Origin: Escherichia phage vB_EcoS_PNS1 | DNA length: 43,945 nucleotides | Direction: 5' to 3' (one strand) | Sequence record: NC_073063.1 | Shown here: piece after piece, positions 18,274 to 43,945 of the stretch | How positions within the stretch are numbered: position 1 is the first letter of the stretch | Layout: each line of letters starts with the position of its first letter | Notes under the pieces: model-generated | Databases searched by the model: none | Told to the model about the DNA's origin: nothing | The model's input: only the letters and a program-made list of their open reading frames with translations | Translations under genes and position numbers: made by a program

Positions 18274-18338
18274 ATACACCTCGAAAAAGAAAACGTCAGA
18301 CAATATGCCTGACGTTTCCGCTAAAAGCAACATTTCCG

Positions 18339-20630
18339 CTACTTGCGGTAACGATACATACAATCGCCTTCTGCGGCAAGCGGGAAGCCTTTCGCCCAAA
18401 TCGGCAGGTCACACATCAGCGCGCACAACTCCTCGGTTGTGTAGTCGTCAGTATCCGGCACTTCGGTGATCAATTCATCGTGCACTGACAGTACGATCTC
18501 ATAGCCCGCAGCCTCAACGCCGGGCATGGACCACGCGAGGATATCGCGACACAGCGCCTGTACGATGTTTTCCGTCAGTTTGCCGCCGTAGGTATACTGG
18601 AATCCCCACTGGCGCGTCGTCTGATTCTCGCCCTGGTATTTGATGCGGGTGCTGGTGCGCTTCTTGCCGGTATCTTCGTCGATCTCGGTTGTCACTGACA
18701 GCGCAATGCCTGGGTAACTCATAATACGCCCCGACGGCAACTCAATTTTCAACCACCACCCAGCGGCGTTCGGGTCGTCGCGCTCCTCGTCGAAGGTTGG
18801 GTCGTGCTTCGCCTTCGTTCGAACAATCTTGAGCGCTTTCCTGCCATCCGGGCGAACGTTCGCGCCAGCCCAGTACGCTTTACCAGGATTTCGGATTGCA
18901 CATAACACCGCATCCTCAAGCTCGGCCCAAAATGCTACGGTCTTCGGGTGGGCCTCACGCCACATGCGTTTGATCGCGTCGCATGTCAGCCATACGTTTT
19001 TAGGCAGTATGTAGGTTGGGCGCTCGTCTTTCTTGCCAGGCTTCGGCGGGCGCTTCGCTTCGTTAATGCGAGCGTACTCATAACCACGCTTCGCCGCCGC
19101 CCAAATGTGATCCGGGAATGTGCCCTTCATGACGTCCGCCATCGCGTACAGGTCCAGTCCCAGGTTTTTAGCGAATTGCAAGAACGCCGCGACGCCGCCA
19201 CCATAGCCCAGTCCCAATTCGCAAGCCTTACCGATCTGGCGTAAATCCTTACGGTTAGCTTTGATGTAGTCCGGGTCGAGGCCGAACATCTTACCGGCAG
19301 TCTCACAATAAATATCGCGACCGGCCTTAAACACCATTAGCGCGGTTTTCTCGCCAGCGATCCAGGCAAGCCCGCGCCCTTCAACGTTGGAGTAGTCCGC
19401 TACGACAAACTTCTTGCCCTTTGCGGGGATAATGCACCCGCGAACGGTCGAGGCGGTTAGCTTCGATATGTCATACGCCCAGTGCGCGGTCCCGCGTAAC
19501 AGGGAGTTGATGCCGTTGGTGAGCATGTGCGACCGGACCCAAAAAGCGACGTCGCTCTCGCCTTCGCGGCGCTTAATCTTCCCTTCGTGGTCGTCGCTAT
19601 ACTCGCCGCGTGCCAGGTTTTGCGGCTGAAAGCTTTTACCGGCCCAGCGCAGCGTGCGCTTTGCGCCGCCATACTGAAGACATCCACGGCGGCGACCATC
19701 TGCGGATAAGCCGTTAACTAGCGGATTGTATTTAGTCGATGCCGTTGATGACGCGCCGAGGCGCATTTCTATAAGCGCTTTGCCTTCGTCGGGGAAGTCC
19801 GGGTCTTCAAGCAGGTCGTTAAGTGTGGATTTCTGCGCGTTGTGGATTGTGAACGCCGGGGCGATATCACGCAGGATTGGCAGGAATTCATTGCCGGTAA
19901 GCTTACCGCCGAAGCGCTCCCAGGCTTCTTCCTTCAATTCTTCTTTATGCGCCTGTACCGCTTTGATCGCGGCGTTCGCCAGATCAACGTCCACGTAGAA
20001 GCCGCGGTCGTTGACCAACTGGTCAATAAGCAGGATTTCATCTTCCTTCGGCGTGTTGCCCCAGTCCGGTATGCGCCAATAGACTTCCCTCATAGCGATG
20101 ATATCCAACGCGGCATAGCGCAGGAATTTAGCCCACTCCTCTGGGTGCGTCTCGCGCGTGTAGCGGCGGATTTTGTAGGTCTTAGGGGTAGGCTTACAGA
20201 ATCGTTTGATCAGCGCCTTGCCCGCCTTATCCTTCGCGTGCTCTGCGTCAACGCCCAGCACCTGGCACTGCATATCGAGGCTACCGGGCAGCGCGTGGCG
20301 AAAAGCCATAATCATGGTGTCTTCGATCTGGCTTACCGGCAGGTCAATACCCCACTTCTCACGGATAACCAGGCGGTCAAACAGGAGGCCGTTAGCCATC
20401 ACTATTTTTGCTTTCTTGCGGGATACCCGGCGGAGCGCCTTGCGCAGTTCACGCGGCATTGTGGGGAATTCAGTGCAATCCCATGTCTGCACGCGGCCCT
20501 CGTCGATGGCGTAGGTGCAAATCATAATCTCGGTGGTTGGGTGCTCTGCGTAGGCGTACGCCCCAACTTTCTTCAGGTCCACCCCGCTAAATGTCTCGGT
20601 ATCGAGAAACAGGCGTTCGAAGTCTTTCAT
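18339..20630 (-). CDS. family A DNA polymerase with 3-prime to 5-prime exonuclease domain
   Basis: 763 aa; exo motif LFLDTETFSG, O-helix/motif B region ...GKACELGLGYGGG, motif C SVHDEL. Confidence 0.95.
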   Translation of the reverse strand: MKDFERLFLDTETFSGVDLKKVGAYAYAEHPTTEIMICTYAIDEGRVQTWDCTEFPTMPRELRKALRRVSRKKAKIVMANGLLFDRLVIREKWGIDLPVSQIEDTMIMAFRHALPGSLDMQCQVLGVDAEHAKDKAGKALIKRFCKPTPKTYKIRRYTRETHPEEWAKFLRYAALDIIAMREVYWRIPDWGNTPKEDEILLIDQLVNDRGFYVDVDLANAAIKAVQAHKEELKEEAWERFGGKLTGNEFLPILRDIAPAFTIHNAQKSTLNDLLEDPDFPDEGKALIEMRLGASSTASTKYNPLVNGLSADGRRRGCLQYGGAKRTLRWAGKSFQPQNLARGEYSDDHEGKIKRREGESDVAFWVRSHMLTNGINSLLRGTAHWAYDISKLTASTVRGCIIPAKGKKFVVADYSNVEGRGLAWIAGEKTALMVFKAGRDIYCETAGKMFGLDPDYIKANRKDLRQIGKACELGLGYGGGVAAFLQFAKNLGLDLYAMADVMKGTFPDHIWAAAKRGYEYARINEAKRPPKPGKKDERPTYILPKNVWLTCDAIKRMWREAHPKTVAFWAELEDAVLCAIRNPGKAYWAGANVRPDGRKALKIVRTKAKHDPTFDEERDDPNAAGWWLKIELPSGRIMSYPGIALSVTTEIDEDTGKKRTSTRIKYQGENQTTRQWGFQYTYGGKLTENIVQALCRDILAWSMPGVEAAGYEIVLSVHDELITEVPDTDDYTTEELCALMCDLPIWAKGFPLAAEGDCMYRYRK

Positions 20631-20797
20631 TGCTTTATCCTCACTACGGCGTCAGCGCTGCCGATCATGGAGAAGATACCGTCGGAAAGGGTTATCTCCT
20701 CGCCGTTGTTGCGAATCTCGGCGACTGTGAAATATTCCCCCAGTAGCTTAGACCATACCTGCATTCCGACTTTCACTTCGCTGGCTTTAATACGCAT
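20627..20797 (-). CDS. small hypothetical protein (56 aa), translationally coupled to DNA polymerase
   Basis: ATG at 20797, stop TGA overlaps polymerase ATG (ATGA); not in the ORF track (below size cutoff). Confidence 0.35.
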   Translation of the reverse strand: MRIKASEVKVGMQVWSKLLGEYFTVAEIRNNGEEITLSDGIFSMIGSADAVVRIKQ

Positions 20798-20814
20798 TTT
20801 TCATTGTCCTATTA

Positions 20815-20845
20815 AAAAGCCCGCATTAAGCGGGCTTGAATAGTG
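20815..20845 (-). terminator. rho-independent terminator (minus strand)
   Basis: Stem gcccgc/gcgggc with loop ttaat followed by T-run on the minus strand, after gene 20856..21632. Confidence 0.5.
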
Positions 20846-20855
20846 GGCTTTGCCC

Positions 20856-21632
20856 TTAACGGCGGCGACGTTTACGTGGTGCTTCGTCTTCGTCCTCATC
20901 TTCGTCATCGCGTGGCTTACGACGTTTGCGAGGTTTTTCATCTTCCTCATCGTCGTCGTCATCGCGGCGCTTGGATTTTTTGGACTTGCGCGGTTTGTCG
21001 TCTTCGTCATCGTCATCACGACGTTTTGACTTTTTGGACTTGCGCGGGCTTTCGTCTTCGTCATCGTTGTCCAGGTCTTCGTCGGAACATGAAGACCCGC
21101 CACCTCCGAAGGCTTCGCCGTCTTCACGGAATCGCAGACCCAGCAAGCCAGCCCCGAGTCCCTTGCCGTTGGTATTGTTCCACGCCCAAATATCCAGGGA
21201 CACATTGCAATAACAACCGGAGTAGATCTCCTGGCCTTCGATCTCGTCGCCTTCTACGGTCAGACCTTGTTCCGTCTGCTTCTCGCCGAGTGACGTTTGA
21301 ATGATCGGCTGTTTGAACGATTTGGCGTTGATGTACAACATGCCTTCAAATTCTTCGGTTACTTCGTCGCGCTCGTCACCGTCGCGAACTGCGCATTCCT
21401 TAGAATCTTGGGCGTAGTGGCGGTCCATCCACTTATCGGCATTCTTCTCGGATTTCAGCTTGTCGGTGAGCACTGCGCGCGCTGCCGCTTCCACTTTGTC
21501 CACCTGCGGATCTTCTTTATCCAGAAGAATCACTGCACGGTATGCCGGTTTTTGTCCATCCTGTTTAGGGGTATCGCGCTCCCAAATTTTAAGGAAACAT
21601 ACGCGCACATTTTTCAGGTTGACTTTAGCCAT
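20856..21632 (-). CDS. putative ssDNA-binding protein (DUF2815-like) with repetitive charged C-terminal tail
   Basis: 258 aa from ATG 21632 (GAGGA RBS); N-terminus MAKVNLKNVRV...; C-terminal tandem repeats PRKSKKSKRRDDDD encoded by ~54-bp DNA repeats around 20975-21075. Confidence 0.6.
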   Translation of the reverse strand: MAKVNLKNVRVCFLKIWERDTPKQDGQKPAYRAVILLDKEDPQVDKVEAAARAVLTDKLKSEKNADKWMDRHYAQDSKECAVRDGDERDEVTEEFEGMLYINAKSFKQPIIQTSLGEKQTEQGLTVEGDEIEGQEIYSGCYCNVSLDIWAWNNTNGKGLGAGLLGLRFREDGEAFGGGGSSCSDEDLDNDDEDESPRKSKKSKRRDDDDEDDKPRKSKKSKRRDDDDDEEDEKPRKRRKPRDDEDEDEDEAPRKRRRR

Positions 21633-21722
21633 TTTCCAATTCCTCATTTTCACATGTATCGGGGTTATTGGAAGCCACCCCGTTCGGCTTGGTTGCTAAT
21701 CTACTTGGTTGCGCCTAAGCGG

Positions 21723-21965
21723 TCAAGCATTTTCATTAAAAAGATTCCGGGTCACGTAGTTGGTGGCGTTCTCGATCCAGCTTAACGGCGGGCGTTCGAT
21801 GTTCTTTTCCACCCAATCGACGGCAACTTCGCTATAGCCGTCATCCAGCCAGCGGGTCGGATGGCGAATCATCCACGCCACCATTAACACGCCTTGCACG
21901 CAATGCAGGATAAAGCCCAGCGCGCCGATCAAAAACATCAATAAGATTGCGAATACTTTATTCAT
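21723..21965 (-). CDS. small membrane protein
   Basis: 80 aa with hydrophobic N-terminal helix (FAILLMFLIGALGFIL); GAGGA RBS. Confidence 0.4.
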   Translation of the reverse strand: MNKVFAILLMFLIGALGFILHCVQGVLMVAWMIRHPTRWLDDGYSEVAVDWVEKNIERPPLSWIENATNYVTRNLFNENA

Positions 21966-23388
21966 TACTTAAGTCCTCGTCGGTAGCTTCGGACCACGCG
22001 GGGCGTGGGTCGTCTATAGGGGCTAATACCGGTTTAGCCGGTGCGCGCGTGATTTTATCACACAATTTCGCCCACACTTTCGGCTTCTCTTCCTTCAATA
22101 CCTTCTCGGCATCAGTAGGGCTGAGTAATGTTTCTTTGTACATAACATCGCGCTTGATCCGGGCCTTCGTGAAGATTTCAATCACTTCGCTTTCGTCCGC
22201 CCACTTGCGGATCCCTTCCTTACCGGCGACCATCTTGAGGCCCAGCGATTCGCCGTCGCCCGCCATTACCGCCTTGAATACCGCGTACTCGATAGCCTTG
22301 ATGTGCTGGCGCATTGCGTCCAGACCCTCATATGCCTTGCGCAGTTCCGCCGCGCTCATAGCGCCTGGTGCCGCTTCTTTCTTACCACGCTTCGCACGTC
22401 GTGCCGCTTTCCTGGCTTCGCGGGCCGTATTGCGGTCGTGATTGGCGCATTCTTCCTCTGTCGCGATACTCACGTCGTCTCCCAGGTCTTCGTCTGTTGC
22501 CGTTGGTGGGGTCATCGTGTCGATTGCGGCCTTAGCGCGGGCGCTACACTGATCCGCAAATCTGCACCACTGACACGCATCAACGCTCGGTCGGAAGTCG
22601 GCACGGGTGAGTCCCTTCTTGCCGCGGGCGTACGCTTCCAGGGCGGCGATAGCACGCTTGGACGCAAACTTCGCGAATATCTCCAGCGCTTCCACTGTAA
22701 TATCCCACTCCGATGCCCCGCCGCAATACGGCTGGAAGATGACCAGTCGCACGGTCGTAATGTCGTACATGGTTTGCAGCTTGCGCAGCAGGCCGAGCGC
22801 GTACAACATAAGCTGTTTGTTTTTTTTCGCCTCTACCTTATGTCGCCCGGTCTTCAGGTCGCCAACAATCAGCATGTACGTGCCGTCGGTCTTCTTCATG
22901 ACCATGACCATATCGGCAGTGCCGAACGTCTTAACCCGGTTGCCGTCGATCTCGAAGCCAGAGTGTAGGACGCGGGTAAGATCGGCGCGCATCTCAAGCT
23001 GGACAAACTCCGCCACTTCGAGAAGCGGTCGCCAGTGGTCAATGTACGCGTCGCACTGTTTCACCATATCGTCGTTGACCAGTACGCCGCCTTTCGGTGC
23101 TTTCGGGTGCGCCTTTACTGGCCCCTTGCCTTCATTCTCGACGTAACATCCTTTACACGTCTTTGCTGTTATCAGCTTTTCACCGGCGATAATGCGGTTT
23201 AGCACCACTTCAGATACGGTGTGCATACTCGTACCGTTAATCGCGGCTTGCCCGGATTCGTTCGGGATATCTTTTTCTACCACCAGGGCGGCGGGACACC
23301 CCATCCATTTTTTAGCACCTGATGGGCCAAGTAATGAGTGTTCCGTATTACTACCGGATTGCGTTTTACGTTTTGGTTTAATCGCCAT
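21958..23388 (-). CDS. PD-(D/E)XK nuclease, DUF2800/Cas4-like, with C-terminal cysteine cluster
   Basis: 476 aa; N-terminal SGSNTEHSLLGPSGAKKWMGCPA and CQWCRFADQC cluster; typical neighbour of DUF2815 and PolA in phage replication modules. Confidence 0.75.
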   Translation of the reverse strand: MAIKPKRKTQSGSNTEHSLLGPSGAKKWMGCPAALVVEKDIPNESGQAAINGTSMHTVSEVVLNRIIAGEKLITAKTCKGCYVENEGKGPVKAHPKAPKGGVLVNDDMVKQCDAYIDHWRPLLEVAEFVQLEMRADLTRVLHSGFEIDGNRVKTFGTADMVMVMKKTDGTYMLIVGDLKTGRHKVEAKKNKQLMLYALGLLRKLQTMYDITTVRLVIFQPYCGGASEWDITVEALEIFAKFASKRAIAALEAYARGKKGLTRADFRPSVDACQWCRFADQCSARAKAAIDTMTPPTATDEDLGDDVSIATEEECANHDRNTAREARKAARRAKRGKKEAAPGAMSAAELRKAYEGLDAMRQHIKAIEYAVFKAVMAGDGESLGLKMVAGKEGIRKWADESEVIEIFTKARIKRDVMYKETLLSPTDAEKVLKEEKPKVWAKLCDKITRAPAKPVLAPIDDPRPAWSEATDEDLSNE

Positions 23389-23844: not shown

Positions 23845-24357
23845 TTAGTCTTCCAGTTCGAAATATGTTTCGACGATTTCTTTCAGATCTTTGTGGAAGT
23901 CTTCTACGTCGTCATCTTCCAGTTTTGCGATCGATTTGATCTCGAACGCTTCCAGCAGGTCGTCAAATTCGTCGTTGGCATCGTCGTCATCACCACCGGC
24001 GATAATCGCGGCATACTGTTTGATTTCGTCGCGCATCTCTGCCAGCGGGTCGGCATCTTTCTTACCTTTGCCTTTCGCCGGTGCTTTTTTACCCTTCGCC
24101 GGTTTTTCGTCTTCGGCTTCTTCATCGTCGTCATCTTCTACGACTTCTTTTTTGGCCTTACCTTTAGCCGGTGCTTTTTTGGTTTTCGCCGGTTTTTCGT
24201 CTTCATCGTCGTCATCTTCTACGACTTCTTTTTTGGCCTTAGACGGCTTCTTGTCTTCCTGCTTACCAACGGCAGCGCCAACGGTTTCATAATGCTTAGC
24301 GATGGTTTCCAGTGCTACTACGCCGCGAGTGATCAGGTTTACGATTTGCTCAAACAT
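23845..24357 (-). CDS. acidic tandem-repeat protein, first gene of the early operon
   Basis: 170 aa from ATG 24357 (GGAGA RBS); two copies of KKEVVEDDDDE(D/E)EKPAK.KKAPAKGK plus acidic C-terminus; an upstream in-frame ATG at 24537 has no RBS. Confidence 0.6.
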   Translation of the reverse strand: MFEQIVNLITRGVVALETIAKHYETVGAAVGKQEDKKPSKAKKEVVEDDDDEDEKPAKTKKAPAKGKAKKEVVEDDDDEEAEDEKPAKGKKAPAKGKGKKDADPLAEMRDEIKQYAAIIAGGDDDDANDEFDDLLEAFEIKSIAKLEDDDVEDFHKDLKEIVETYFELED

Positions 24358-24553
24358 GGTATATCTCCGATTGGTTAAGTTTATGTGTCGGCAGTAAACT
24401 TCGTCGGTGGCCTTAACATAGTGCCAGGTTACGCGTTCTCCCTTTCGGGTAGTGGACCTGGTTATATAATCACGGTTGGGAATCCTGACACTTCGATCCG
24501 GCCCCTGCGTTGCCCCTCTCCAGTTTGCGTCCTGCATCCTGTCGACGAGGTGA

Positions 24554-24582
24554 ATATTAGATTGGTTGCAGAAGGGAGTCAA
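24554..24582 (-). promoter_or_regulatory. sigma70-like early promoter (minus strand)
   Basis: Minus strand reads TTGACT, 17-bp spacer containing CTGCAACCAAT, then TAATAT. Confidence 0.5.
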
Positions 24583-24590
24583 CAACTAAT

Positions 24591-24758: not shown

Positions 24759-25088
24759 ATGAATATCAACGACGCAATCGAAATGTTAACTAAAACTGTT
24801 TGCAGTGAGACTAGCCGGTCCTGGGCGTATACCGATGCCGTGGGTGCGGTGCTATTTGAAATCGAACGTCTGCGACTTACCGAAAAAGCATTGCGCGCGA
24901 AGCTGGAATTACTCAACGGTACGGCAGCCAGCAAGCTGCAAAAACACAATGAAGAAATGGAAGAATACAAAAAACAGGTTATCCGTCTACGTGAGGAAGG
25001 TAAATCCTGGGCCATGATCGCCGAGCTAACCGGAATTAATCAGAGCACAGTGCGCTCATGGGTACGCAATAATAAAACTTCTAAGTAA
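24759..25088 (+). CDS. HTH DNA-binding protein, candidate transcriptional regulator
   Basis: 109 aa; C-terminal SWAMIAELTGINQSTVRSWVRN helix-turn-helix; first plus-strand gene after the divergent region. Confidence 0.6.
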   Translation: MNINDAIEMLTKTVCSETSRSWAYTDAVGAVLFEIERLRLTEKALRAKLELLNGTAASKLQKHNEEMEEYKKQVIRLREEGKSWAMIAELTGINQSTVRSWVRNNKTSK

Positions 25089-25098
25089 GGCCACGGCA

Positions 25099-27363
25099 AT
25101 GAGCTTAATTAAATTCGCTGTAACACGACCCGCTAAAAAAGGCGAAAAAGCCAGGGCGGAAAACTTCCAGATGACCACCGATGAATTTTTCGAATTTATC
25201 AATGACGCGAAAGAAATCTCCTCGGTGCATATCAACAAGACGGAAGATAAAGCCGAGTATGCGCGCCGCAAGCGTAAGGCCGATGGCATCGTGGCGTATA
25301 CCAGTGACGGCTTACGCCGCAAGACCAGTGCGGTGGACCGCTCGATCCTGTTCTTCGATATTGACCGCACCGACACCCGCACCTTACGCCGCTGCCGTAA
25401 GGCTTTCATCGACGCGGGGCTGGAGCACGTATTCCACACCACTACGGGCGACCGCCACCCGCTGAAGGGCGGAACGCGTTGCGCCCGTTTCCTGGTGCTC
25501 ACTGACAAGCCTGTCCCGGCGGAAGACCTGGGCCGTGTCCAGTATGCGCTATTACACCAACTGGGTCTGTCAGATGTGGACTTCGACGATTGCACGAAAG
25601 ACACAAACCGCCTGATGTACCTGCCGCACCAGCAATCGGTTATTAAGTGCCACTATGGCAAACGTGCCAGTGTCCGTCGTCTGCTTCGCCTGGCGGATAA
25701 GCTGGGGGTGGAGAAGGAGGAAGTCCGCCGCGAACTGACCAAGGGCGACGACGCCGTGGCAGACGGCATTCTGGACTGGTGCTTCCAGGCGGGATTCGAG
25801 GAGTTATCTTCCGGGCGGGGCTATGAAGTGCCGTGCCCTAACGAACACCTGCACAGCGGCGAAGGGTCCACCGCCATAATGGTCAAGGATGGCGAGATCC
25901 GTTTCAAGTGTATGCACACCGGCAACGAGTGCTGCTCGGAGCTGAACAGACACCAGCACCTGGCGCTCCGTCTTATCGGTATCCCGGACCACCTGAACGT
26001 CGAGCCGCACAACATGTCACGTAAGCAAATCGCCGCCATCCTGCCAGGTCTGGACGACGAGGAAGTCGAATCATTATATGATCATATTGTTGATGCGGTA
26101 GGCGACGGCGAAGAATACGGCGTGTGCACCGATTCGGATCTGGATAACGAGCCGGTCGCACTGTTCAGCAAGCACGACCCGATCATCGAAGGTCTGATTA
26201 ACTTTAAATCGACCTGGTATCTCGCCGGTGAGTCGAACATTGGTAAGTCTTTCTATGTGCTGGGGCAAATGGCTTCAGTATCTGCCGGTATTCCGTTTGG
26301 TGGGGCGAAGGTCGTCCAGTGCCACAACTTCTATTTCGATGCGGAAGGTGGTGAAGCCTCTAACCAGCGTAAAGAAGCATTGCAGATTAAATACGAGCAC
26401 GACCTGGATAAGCTGCACATTATCGATCTGCAATCACGCGGCTGGGATATCACCAGCAAATCAGGCTTGCGCGAAGTTATCAGCTTTATCAACCGCACCG
26501 CTAACGGCGAACCGGTTGGCCTGGTGGCGTTCGACTCACTCAACCAGACTGTTGCGTTGCGGTCCGCGGATGCTAAACCGTTCGACGAGAACAACGCCAG
26601 CGATATGGGTGAAGTGGTCAAAGCGCTGAAGGCCATCGCGGAAAATACAGGTGGCAGTGCGGGCGTCATCCACCACCCGGCGAAGGGTGCAAACGGCAGC
26701 AGAACCCCACGCGGGTCCGGCGCGCTGCATGGTGCTGTCGATTCTGCGTTCTTCCTGGAACAGCCGGACGACAACCAGCCAGGCCAATTGAACCTGTATC
26801 ACGAAAAGGCACGTAACGGCATCAAGCAAGCGCCGCGAGGCTTCGTCCTGCTCAAGTGCAAGGTGAAGGTGGATCTCCGCAAGTCAGAAGCGTTCGCGTC
26901 GCACCAGTCCACCAGCACCGGGCCAGACTTCGGTGACGTGGTTGCCGGTTGGGACGTCAAGCCAATTGCATCCACGCCACGCGACGAGACTCTGTATCTC
27001 GTACCGGTCGCCCTGGCACCGTTCGCCATCGAACAGGCAAAGTCCGCTGGCAAGGCCGCAGTTAAGGAAGAGAACGCCGCAGGACCGCGCAATGAAAAAG
27101 AGAAAGTGCTCTATGCGGCGCTGGAAAAACTGATGGAAGATAACCCGGACAATACCGGATTCAGCAAATCGGCAATTGTCCGCCAGGCTGGACTGGCAAA
27201 AGGTGGAACATCGACGAAGGCAATCGACGATATGGTCGAGCGCGGCGTACTCGGTTTTTATACAGACCCACACACCGGAGCCATCTATGGGTCGTCGAAT
27301 ATCGTCATCAAAACGAATATACCCATCACGCTTTCGGCGACCGATGACGACCTGAAAGATTAA
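25099..27363 (+). CDS. primase/helicase-type replication initiator (RecA-fold ATPase domain)
   Basis: 754 aa; Walker A GESNIGKS, Walker B-like LVAFDSLNQ; central Cys/His cluster; iterons begin at its stop codon. Confidence 0.85.
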   Translation: MSLIKFAVTRPAKKGEKARAENFQMTTDEFFEFINDAKEISSVHINKTEDKAEYARRKRKADGIVAYTSDGLRRKTSAVDRSILFFDIDRTDTRTLRRCRKAFIDAGLEHVFHTTTGDRHPLKGGTRCARFLVLTDKPVPAEDLGRVQYALLHQLGLSDVDFDDCTKDTNRLMYLPHQQSVIKCHYGKRASVRRLLRLADKLGVEKEEVRRELTKGDDAVADGILDWCFQAGFEELSSGRGYEVPCPNEHLHSGEGSTAIMVKDGEIRFKCMHTGNECCSELNRHQHLALRLIGIPDHLNVEPHNMSRKQIAAILPGLDDEEVESLYDHIVDAVGDGEEYGVCTDSDLDNEPVALFSKHDPIIEGLINFKSTWYLAGESNIGKSFYVLGQMASVSAGIPFGGAKVVQCHNFYFDAEGGEASNQRKEALQIKYEHDLDKLHIIDLQSRGWDITSKSGLREVISFINRTANGEPVGLVAFDSLNQTVALRSADAKPFDENNASDMGEVVKALKAIAENTGGSAGVIHHPAKGANGSRTPRGSGALHGAVDSAFFLEQPDDNQPGQLNLYHEKARNGIKQAPRGFVLLKCKVKVDLRKSEAFASHQSTSTGPDFGDVVAGWDVKPIASTPRDETLYLVPVALAPFAIEQAKSAGKAAVKEENAAGPRNEKEKVLYAALEKLMEDNPDNTGFSKSAIVRQAGLAKGGTSTKAIDDMVERGVLGFYTDPHTGAIYGSSNIVIKTNIPITLSATDDDLKD

Positions 27364-27500
27364 TTTGTGCGCGCATTGGTTGCCGATATGGGAATTCCCA
27401 TATCGCTAAAAGATTAATTTGTGCGCGCATTGGTTGCCGATATGGGAATTCCCATATCGCTAAAAGATTAAATTCTGCGCGCATTGGTTGCCATTTAGGG
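27361..27500. repeat. tandem 54-bp iterons each with a 20-bp perfect palindrome; candidate replication origin
   Basis: Units at 27361-27414 and 27415-27468 are identical, third partial; palindrome GATATGGGAATTCCCATATC at 27385-27404 and 27439-27458; each unit carries ATTGGTTGCC. Confidence 0.8.
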
Positions 27501-27544
27501 TGTTTTTATCCGGTCGTATTGGTTGCCGTGTAGTGTAAATATAA

Positions 27545-27740
27545 TGAATAGTTATGCAGTTTTATTGCATAAAGTAAGCGGGACAGAAAGCGGGACAAAC
27601 AAGGGGCGGGACAAAGCGGGACAGCACCCCTGTCCCGCCCCGGATGACGCGGCCTGGCGAGGAGCGGGACAGGCGGGACAAACCCCAGTCTTTCAGACTA
27701 GACGGGGGGTCTGTCACCCCCCTCGTCTGAGACTGCATAA
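27545..27740. repeat. GCGGGACA repeat array with palindrome GGGACAGCACCCCTGTCCC and terminal hairpin; copy B
   Basis: About 190 bp, about 85 percent identical by eye to the 3-prime part of 113-432; palindrome at 27618-27636. Confidence 0.8.
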
Positions 27741-43617: not shown

Positions 43618-43931
43618 TTGAGGCGGCGCGGCGATTTTATGGCCCGCCGCCACCCTCCGAAGATTTAGCCGCGAGTTTATGGGGTGCGACACCGGAAGAC
43701 GTGTGTCCACCCGTTGCGCTGTGGCCAGACAATGCGAAGGTAGTCGCAGTCTTCACCGATTGCTCCACGCAATGGCGTACCGGATTTGGCGGGGCATACG
43801 GCATAGACTACGGCGTACTGGAATGGTTATTTAAGATGCACGGCATCGAAAACGCGCAACGCGCATTTAAAGATATCAAGCTAATGGAACGCGTTGCGCT
43901 GGATGAAATGGCGCGGCAGAACCCCGCATAA
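43255..43931 (+). CDS. tail assembly chaperone G-T fusion (by -1 frameshift at 43608-43614)
   Basis: Frame 43611..43931 has no stop and joins ORF 43701..43931; conserved G/GT arrangement upstream of tape measure. Confidence 0.55.
43608..43614 (+). other. programmed -1 ribosomal frameshift site (slippery heptamer AAAAAAC)
   Basis: Heptamer 7 nt before the G stop codon; the -1 frame stays open from 43611 to the TAA at 43929-43931. Confidence 0.6.
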
Positions 43932-43945
43932 CGAAGCGGGACAGG

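Follow-up and report, generated by a model that had tools for sequence, protein, structure and literature searches.

Bacterial and phage proteins that bind single-stranded DNA (SSBs) have been described with an acidic tail that self-inhibits DNA binding and recruits partners. The SSB of Escherichia phage vB_EcoS_PNS1 (PNS1), whose gene lies on the minus strand at 20856-21632 of sequence record NC_073063.1, ends in a long tail of acidic and basic blocks, and the locus raises the question of whether this tail is a real departure from the canonical form and what it could be doing in its replication module. All coordinates refer to the window, i.e., the whole 43,945-nt stretch of DNA that was analyzed. 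The explanation favored for the locus as a whole, and regarded as likely, is a module of a DUF2800 nuclease, a T7 gp2.5-type SSB, and a family A DNA polymerase in which the SSB bears a polyampholyte tail. The alternating-charge, copy-number-variable tail is a real variant of the canonical tail and apparently an undescribed one; the literature searched, the coverage of which was incomplete, yielded no account of phage SSB tails with alternating charge or polyampholyte character. Throughout an entire clade, near-neutral acidic/basic units are added and the protein finishes in an Arg-rich block instead of an acidic one, which is worth noting for SSB biology.

Architecture of the SSB tail

The 79-amino-acid (aa) tail follows the folded core of the protein and includes 34 Asp or Glu and 28 Lys or Arg residues (78% charged). 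It begins with an acidic segment, SSCSDEDLDNDDEDES (21048-21095, minus strand), that corresponds to the acidic tail of canonical SSBs: it can be aligned to the tail consensus of the family, ...GEAFGGGxxxxAxDFDDLxDDD, and the SSB of phage welsh has no other acidic segment. Because this first segment matches the canonical consensus, the repeat units that follow it are an appendage to a normal tail. On the same strand, these are unit 1, PRKSKKSKRRDDDDEDDK (20994-21047, 54 nt), recognized by in-frame reading as well as by tandem-repeat and repeat-pair scans; unit 2, PRKSKKSKRRDDDDDEEDEK (20934-20993, 60 nt), recognized by in-frame reading and by 80% nucleotide identity over 54 nt; and the diverged unit 3, PRKRRKPRDDEDEDEDEA (20880-20933, 54 nt), with 79% nucleotide identity to the neighboring register. 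A terminal basic block, PRKRRRR, and the stop codon (20856-20879) complete the gene. The units are 18-20 aa long and read PRKSKKSKRR-DDDD... twice, followed by PRKRRKPR-DDEDE.... With four basic blocks and an RRRR end, this is not a short, purely acidic tail with a hydrophobic or aromatic terminus.

A first-pass annotation of this DNA, made from the letters and their open reading frames (ORFs), had proposed that the tail is built from near-identical units encoded by ~54-bp repeats. The repeats themselves were borne out: Tandem Repeats Finder reported a period of 54 at 20950-21067 (2.2 copies, 85% matches, score 173), and the junction from acidic residues to Pro-Arg-Lys occurs four times at spacings of 54, 60, and 54 nt, the 54-nt pairs being 80% and 79% identical. 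Near identity, in contrast, holds for two units only (PRKSKKSKRRDDDD, 14 of 14 aa), whereas PRKRRKPRDDEDEDEDEA and the terminal PRKRRRR are diverged.

The AlphaFold2 (AF2) model represents the tail as coil with a predicted local distance difference test (pLDDT) score of 49-62, and the tail is predicted to be disordered. A single alpha-helix of the ER/K type was considered and ruled out by this coil prediction and by the Pro-led, Asp-rich units. A disordered, blocky polyampholyte is strongly supported.

Copy-number variation among Dhillonvirus isolates

The window is a complete genome of a Dhillonvirus (HK578-like E. coli siphophage), circularly assembled at ~43.8 kb, since its first 127 bases are repeated at its end. 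The direct repeat is exact (positions 1-127 and 43819-43945), which gives a unique length of 43,818 bp, and probably reflects overlapping ends in the assembly of a genome that is circularly permuted or terminally redundant. A 6.7-kb query around the locus retrieved 188 phage records, 135 of which covered at least 80% of the query. Most of these 135 were 90-95% identical to it, and nearly all were Escherichia or Shigella Dhillonvirus. Gene order was conserved in more than 130 Dhillonvirus genomes with 93-94% DNA identity. Tail alleles were determined from the SSB gene extracted from 20 related genomes, and length classes of the SSB region from a spread sample of 56 GenBank records.

Four in-frame alleles were distinguished by their number of basic blocks. 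The acidic segment of phage welsh runs directly into APRKRRRR, making this a one-block allele. Two blocks were found in EP23 and P-GXEC-L2P5; three in HK578, EK99P-1, Envy, SECphi4, and one IMG/VR contig; and four in PNS1 and most others. Gaps in the alignment of the in-frame alleles keep the register of the units. Both the terminal PRKRRRR and the Pro that opens each basic block were invariant in all in-frame Dhillonvirus alleles examined. Across alleles the tail ranges from 23 to 85 aa and its net charge from -3 to -12; the charge stays mildly negative over these lengths because each unit is nearly neutral. Matching length classes were present in GenBank. Relative to PNS1, the SSB region was within -6 to +18 nt in 46 of the 56 records, shorter by 45 to 66 nt in seven, by 102 nt in one, and by 168 nt in one; the remaining record appears 52 nt longer and combines an intergenic insertion with a two-block tail. 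The suggestion of the first-pass annotation that the repeat region may differ in length between isolates was thus correct, with one to four in-frame basic blocks among Dhillonviruses. We infer that units are gained and lost when the 54-60-nt repeats recombine unequally in register or slip, and the variation together with its recombinational origin is considered highly probable. As a practical matter, measuring the length of the tail region could be an easy way to type Dhillonvirus isolates.

Several records carry tails that are out of frame. In the sister phages vB_EcoS-22664B1 (MZ234008.1) and vB_EcoS-101114B2 (MZ234014.1), differing non-triplet insertions within the tail, of 2 nt and 8 nt, respectively, shift the reading frame; a 1-nt change has the same effect in the metagenomic contig encoding the homologue P0008. 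The alternative frame of the tail corresponds to a window ORF at 20801-21205; it encodes a Met/Thr/Lys-rich tail and has no stop until 3 nt ahead of the next gene. Such tails represent either sequencing errors in a repetitive region or natural loss of the tail. In another contig (L011, IMGVR_UViG_3300045988_003101), the SSB ORF ends ...RRDDAVSYTHLRAHET at the contig end, which we take to be a translated Nextera adapter and thus an artefact.

These problem records, i.e., the two frameshifts and the adapter-derived end, together with the ability of short-read assemblers to collapse tandem repeats, are what speak for the possibility that the repeats and their copy-number differences are not real. 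The units, however, are 54-60 nt long and ~80% identical, and lie well inside a single read. The two-block (EP23, P-GXEC-L2P5) and three-block (HK578, EK99P-1, Envy, SECphi4) alleles recur in independent isolates across laboratories and years, and the variants are all in frame and in register. A sequencing or assembly artefact is accordingly regarded as very improbable.

Constraint on the tail and its distribution in the PF10991 family

How strongly the tail peptide is constrained was gauged by comparing the units within PNS1. The first 14 aa of unit 2 match those of unit 1 exactly, and the 42 nt that encode these residues differ by six synonymous and no non-synonymous changes (counted by eye). 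Between PNS1 and its relatives, the summed pN/pS (non-synonymous over synonymous differences per site) was 0.06 in the core and 0.13 in the tail, the latter value coming from an ambiguous low-complexity alignment and non-independent pairs. Purifying selection on the tail peptide is strongly supported by the purely synonymous differences between units 1 and 2 and by this low tail pN/pS.

The distribution of such tails in the wider family was assessed with a core-only, index-free HMMER search of 1.84 billion representatives, which returned 2,190 relatives; the best 149 with a complete core were classified. A purely acidic tail, mostly of 20-35 aa, was present in 130 of these 149. Many of the acidic tails end hydrophobic, and some end DIPF or DIPY like E. 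coli SSB. The other 19 had at least one basic block, and 12 of them at least two. An initial impression that alternating tails are the rule in this family was discarded as an artefact of the first search, which had been seeded on shared 5-residue words in the low-complexity tail. Homologues with as little as ~23-35% identity have alternating tails, and the unit sequence differs from one to the next (for example, EAPKKRRASRDDDD, DRSSRRSRRSRDDED, and DRGSRSRSRDDDDD). Such tails are encoded by tandem arrays of their own, for instance one in a Labrenzia element (54 nt x 6.6) and another in a metagenomic phage (51 nt x ~4). Neighboring basic blocks are a median of 19 aa apart (interquartile range 17-21). 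Judged from these sequences, the pattern points to a minority architecture that expanded independently in distant lineages, with selection acting on the pattern and not on any one sequence.

The same data bear on a simpler account, in which the units are neutral filler of a slippage-prone disordered tail, selection maintains only disorder and mild acidity, and the basic blocks have no binding role. This account is consistent with the tolerance of one to four units in plaque-forming isolates, with the near-neutrality of the units, so that their gain or loss barely shifts the net charge, with the out-of-frame tails in database records, and with the absence of basic blocks from 130 of the 149 family representatives. 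It does not readily accommodate the 14 of 14 residues that units 1 and 2 keep despite six synonymous changes, a tail pN/pS far below 1, or the invariance of the terminal PRKRRRR and of the Pro that opens each basic block in the in-frame alleles. Moreover, the alternation of acidic and Pro-basic blocks at a spacing of ~15-23 aa recurs with unrelated units in distant lineages, and is therefore hard to explain without selection for the pattern. Neutral filler is considered rather unlikely.

Possible functions of the tail

A working model for the module can be formulated largely by homology. The Cas4/AddB-like nuclease, with its presumed Fe-S cluster, would resect DNA ends; the gp2.5/Enc34-type SSB would coat the resulting and the replicative single-stranded DNA (ssDNA) and probably anneal complementary strands; and the proofreading family A polymerase would copy DNA together with the divergently encoded helicase-primase (25099-27363). 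Within this scheme, the tail may act as a multivalent electrostatic linker. Its acidic blocks would occupy the DNA cleft of the SSB itself, enforce ssDNA specificity, and contact basic patches on the polymerase or helicase, and its basic blocks and Arg-rich end would contact DNA phosphates or the acidic blocks of neighboring SSBs. Contacts of the basic blocks could in turn tune cooperativity, self-association, and annealing. This role, suggested by charge pattern, conservation, and analogy, is put forward tentatively and is given somewhat less than even credence.

The closest functional precedent known to us for mixed basic and acidic disordered segments in an SSB is T4 gp32, in which a basic N-terminal 'LAST' motif, (Lys/Arg)3(Ser/Thr)2, serves cooperativity and an acidic C-terminal domain provides autoinhibition and partner recruitment. 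The T4 protein has an unrelated core, however, and its basic and acidic parts are at opposite termini, with no tandem repeats or copy-number variation. A bolder version of the linker proposal holds that the alternating tail is a distinct, recurrently evolved SSB module, which would replace recruitment by an 'acidic tip' with multivalent charge-block interactions that would drive SSB-SSB cooperativity or condensation of the replication compartment, the number of units being the tuning knob. A neighboring alternating-charge protein (23845-24585) possibly takes part in such charge-block condensation. This version is speculative and was judged to have only a modest chance of being right.

Several points, to which the alignment behind the tail pN/pS belongs, weigh against a functional interpretation of the tail. 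Viable isolates tolerate one to four units, so the number of units is not critical. The out-of-frame tails, if real, would make the whole tail dispensable, at least in the laboratory. Some of the length variants could be assembly collapses, yet the multi-unit classes each occur in several independent records. In the unbiased core-only search, basic blocks were confined to a small minority of representatives, and the binding partners proposed for them derive from charge pattern, conservation, and analogy. The natural series of one to four units is found in ~93%-identical, easily grown E. coli phages, and this allelic series makes tail length and charge patterning testable for effects on cooperativity, annealing, partner recruitment, and condensates.

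Variation of the tail might also reflect an arms race, with its length driven by defense systems that sense SSBs (Retron-Eco8, Hachiman, ShosTA, AbpAB). The SSB orthologue of SECphi4 (QJI52528.1), which was treated as an SSB, is a published trigger of Retron-Eco8; SSBs are recurrent defense triggers; and no part of the SSB varies more between isolates than the tail. However, among the Retron-Eco8 escape mutations of SECphi4, SECphi6, and SECphi18 in the part of the published escaper table that was covered, T56P and D25_P29dup affect the OB core of the SSB, the others lie upstream of the gene, in its promoter or the intergenic region, and the tail is free of them; also listed there among the escapers is a mutant with a stop codon in the orthologue of an 80-aa ORF encoded next to the SSB gene. 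Similarly, deletion of the C-terminal tail in T7 leaves Eco8 activation unaffected. A defense-driven origin of the length variation therefore appears improbable.

The SSB gene and its core

The mechanically called ORF of the SSB spans 20856-21653 (265 aa). The true start is most likely the ATG at 21632 (M8 of this ORF), giving 258 aa, because an AGGA lies 8 nt upstream of it and the annotated or published orthologues begin MAKVNLK. Its core (M8-G186 of the mechanically called ORF, 21096-21632, minus strand) matched PF10991 (Enc34_ssDNA-bd), the family that the Enc34 paper describes as DUF2815, over positions 2-173 of the 176 in the profile, scoring 109.5 bits (cut-off 26; E = 1.9e-31), and phrog_112 (Gp2.5-like SSB/annealing protein) with E = 2e-57. 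Matches by sequence in the PDB were the DUF2815 proteins 4klk and 4jg2 and Enc34 ORF6 (5odj, 5odk, and 5odl). In the AF2 model the core has a pLDDT of ~97, and Foldseek aligned it with 4klk (E = 4e-12), 5odl (E = 1e-11), and T7 gp2.5 (1je5, E = 5e-7).

The hallmark of this family is an oligonucleotide/oligosaccharide-binding (OB)-fold barrel whose long capping helix immediately follows strand beta2 (PMC5686142). Both the barrel and the capping helix are present in the model, in which a strand at residues 37-45 is followed by a helix at 50-66. A base-stacking aromatic residue is also conserved at the start of beta4 (Enc34 Trp150, B. cereus Tyr136, T7 Tyr158), with a polar residue at +4 (PMC5686142). 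The PNS1 segment YSGCY148CNVS152 aligns with SGCYARVS of 4jg2 and SGVYAIAS of 4klk, which makes Y148 the base-stacking aromatic. By analogy with these proteins, the PNS1 SSB probably binds ssDNA preferentially and may anneal strands; activation of the SSB-sensing Retron-Eco8 by the SECphi4 orthologue is an indirect indication of this.

Comparison with characterized members of the fold locates the novelty in the tail. The SSB of SECphi4 and other Dhillonvirus Gp2.5-like proteins share the locus, the core, and the tail architecture, with three basic blocks in SECphi4 (two PRKSKKSKRR and the terminal one) versus four in PNS1. In the paper on the SECphi4 protein, an AlphaFold core was aligned to T7 gp2.5, the 'flexible C-terminal residues' were omitted, and the tail was left undiscussed. 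Enc34 ORF6 (5ODJ, 5ODK, and 5ODL), from an Enterobacter/Hafnia phage and the founder of PF10991, has the same family, fold, capping helix, and an unstructured tail. That tail, however, is short and purely acidic (Asp or Glu in 16 of the last 29 residues), whereas PNS1 adds acidic/basic units and an Arg-rich end; removal of the acidic tail of Enc34 ORF6 abolishes discrimination of ssDNA over double-stranded DNA. T7 gp2.5 (1JE5) has the same fold class, with only ~12-15% identity in the Foldseek alignment. The T7 protein is an SSB and annealing protein whose replication module, as in PNS1, includes a family A polymerase, and its acidic tail competes with ssDNA and is implicated in polymerase and helicase contacts. 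It ends acidic with a C-terminal Phe (...DEDGDF), in contrast to the PRKRRRR of PNS1.

The duf2800-gp2.5-polA module

On the minus strand, the nuclease, an 80-aa ORF, the SSB, a 56-aa ORF, and the polymerase are adjacent and co-oriented in this order. Nine ORFs around the locus were profiled with Pfam and PHROGs. The first-pass annotation had read the nuclease, the SSB, and the polymerase as a recognizable replication/recombination cassette of DUF2800, DUF2815, and family A types, and the profile searches assigned exactly those families, so that these gene identities are as good as certain. All three ORFs are real, although the polymerase gene, which had been placed within 20856-23388, falls outside that interval.

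The nuclease (476 aa; 21958-23388, minus strand) is a Cas4-like PD-(D/E)XK enzyme by Pfam, PHROG, and AF2 fold matches. It aligned with the full profile (1-368) of PF10926 (DUF2800; 222.9 bits against a cut-off of 21, E = 9e-66), and further matched PF12705 (PDDEXK_1; 35.2 bits against 22, E = 1.7e-8) and phrog_69 (exonuclease; E = 8e-105). Among 30 homologues with 57-96% identity, D159, D177-L-K179, and Q192-x3-Y196 were invariant; assigned by position and inspection, the first three acidic and basic residues (D159, D177, and K179) would be the catalytic residues of the PD-(D/E)XK fold, and Q192-x3-Y196 the RecB-type Q-x3-Y motif. A Cys cluster had also been proposed in this protein. It was real as C31 and C272-x2-C275-x5-C281, which were invariant in the same homologues, but it does not extend to C78 and C81, which were not conserved. 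The four invariant Cys residues are spaced as in Cas4 and AddB and presumably form an Fe-S cluster site.

No match of the nuclease sequence to any solved structure in the PDB was found, and the fold was tested with the AF2 model instead. Foldseek matched the model to ACE1 of the Cas4 family (E = 8e-6), AdnAB (1e-5), and AddB (2e-4), as well as to RecE, Cas4, Exo5, and MGME1. The match is limited to the N-terminal 265 residues, which keeps the TM-scores modest (0.2-0.5). Around residues 268-290 the AF2 confidence falls to low values (<50), and the C-terminal half is predicted to be disordered over ~268-363 before a small folded domain. The fold, the C...C-x2-C-x5-C spacing, and the D...D-x-K and Q-x3-Y motifs are thus shared with the Fe-S nucleases Cas4, AddB, AdnAB, and Exo5; the phage protein differs from them in its extra C-terminal half of ~200 aa and in the absence of a detectable sequence match.

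The polymerase (763 aa; 18339-20630, minus strand) is a family A enzyme with an N-terminal 3'-5' proofreading domain, as indicated by Pfam, PHROG, and PDB matches and by motif strings. It matched PF00476 (DNA_pol_A) with 59.7 bits against a cut-off of 34.3, where only residues 393-482 align, and phrog_17 (DNA polymerase) over its full length (E = 6e-130). Structures of Taq, Klenow, and Bst PolI were also matched. Inspection assigned strings resembling motifs A, B, and C (ADYSNVEGR at residue 411, RQIGKACELGLGYGGG at 464, and SVHDELI at 715) and Exo I, II, and III (FLDTETFS at residue 8, NGLLFDRLV at 80, and YAALDIIAM at 172). The SECphi4 orthologue was published as PolA and as the trigger of Borvo. 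In some Dhillonviruses, including PS2 (PV637039.1), P-GXEC-L2P5 (PQ843332.1), and Pubbukkers (OK499988.1), the polymerase gene is ~900 nt longer (3189 versus 2292 nt), which looks like an insertion polymorphism; one of the longer genes is annotated as intein-containing.

Two small ORFs are interleaved with these genes, both annotated in all relatives. The 80-aa ORF (21723-21965, minus strand; phrog_11211, E = 9e-53) has a hydrophobic N-terminus, overlaps the nuclease stop by 8 nt, and lies between nuclease and SSB. The 56-aa ORF between SSB and polymerase (20627-20797, minus strand; phrog_10102, E = 9e-43) overlaps the polymerase start by 4 nt, and a SECphi4 protein of the same length has been cloned as a candidate defense trigger. 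Upstream of the SSB gene, the spacer contains a candidate sigma-70-like promoter, TTGACC-17-TAGATT (21698-21726, minus strand), from a consensus scan that is weak alone. Just past the polymerase stop, a consensus match to an intrinsic terminator (18289-18319, minus strand), with a 14-bp stem and a T run, is probably the end of this transcription unit.

A duf2800-gp2.5-polA module was named by Steczkiewicz et al. (2021) in phages of Firmicutes and Gram-negative bacteria (PMC8093625). The PNS1 locus has the same three families, adjacent and co-oriented, and differs in the two small ORFs interleaved between them. The order DUF2800-SSB-PolA-SNF2 helicase also occurs in two very distant relatives (L021, and L022 from Labrenzia sp.). 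Because the module is named in the literature, its orthologues are published, and its order is kept in distant relatives, the cassette itself is ordinary: an already known phage replication/recombination module in a well-sampled genus.

Other features of the locus

No second SSB was found among the nine profiled ORFs. NCBIfam contained no family for the nuclease, the SSB, the helicase-primase, or a phrog_3127 protein encoded nearby, and gave only sub-threshold matches for PolA. Nothing ties the Dhillonvirus trigger of the Retron-Eco7 paper, the function of which is unknown, to this nuclease, and the label 'DNA recombination nuclease inhibitor gamma' belongs to a 109-aa helix-turn-helix (HTH) protein at 24759-25088 (plus strand). 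The latter is annotated variously as this inhibitor, a transposase, or a resolvase, and Pfam supports the HTH only.

The phrog_3127 protein (23845-24585, minus strand) is encoded in the same leftward gene cluster as the SSB and has alternating-charge repeats as well. A 90-nt unit occurs twice (24051-24229), with lysine-rich KPAK.KKAPAKGK.KK blocks alternating with EVVEDDDDE.

The Labrenzia sp. element (AXCE01000011.1, 80938-95963) contains a ~10-kb island between a flagellin gene and a LysR regulator. Its genes encode a Prim-Pol/DUF3987 primase, a DUF2800 protein, a 341-aa SSB with the 54-nt x 6.6 tail, a 620-aa protein, and an SNF2 helicase. The 15 kb viewed contained no structural genes, and the island is possibly a satellite or a degraded prophage.

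Finally, a 54-bp tandem repeat (27352-27513; 2.6-3 copies, 97-98% identity) starts shortly ahead of the helicase-primase stop (27363) and continues downstream. A perfect 22-bp palindrome, CGATATGGGAATTCCCATATCG, is present in every full copy. A second motif, AAGCGGGAC, repeats at 27573-27622 and also occurs near the window start (274-317). The palindrome and motif repeats of 27352-27622 possibly represent an origin, iterons, or regulatory sites.

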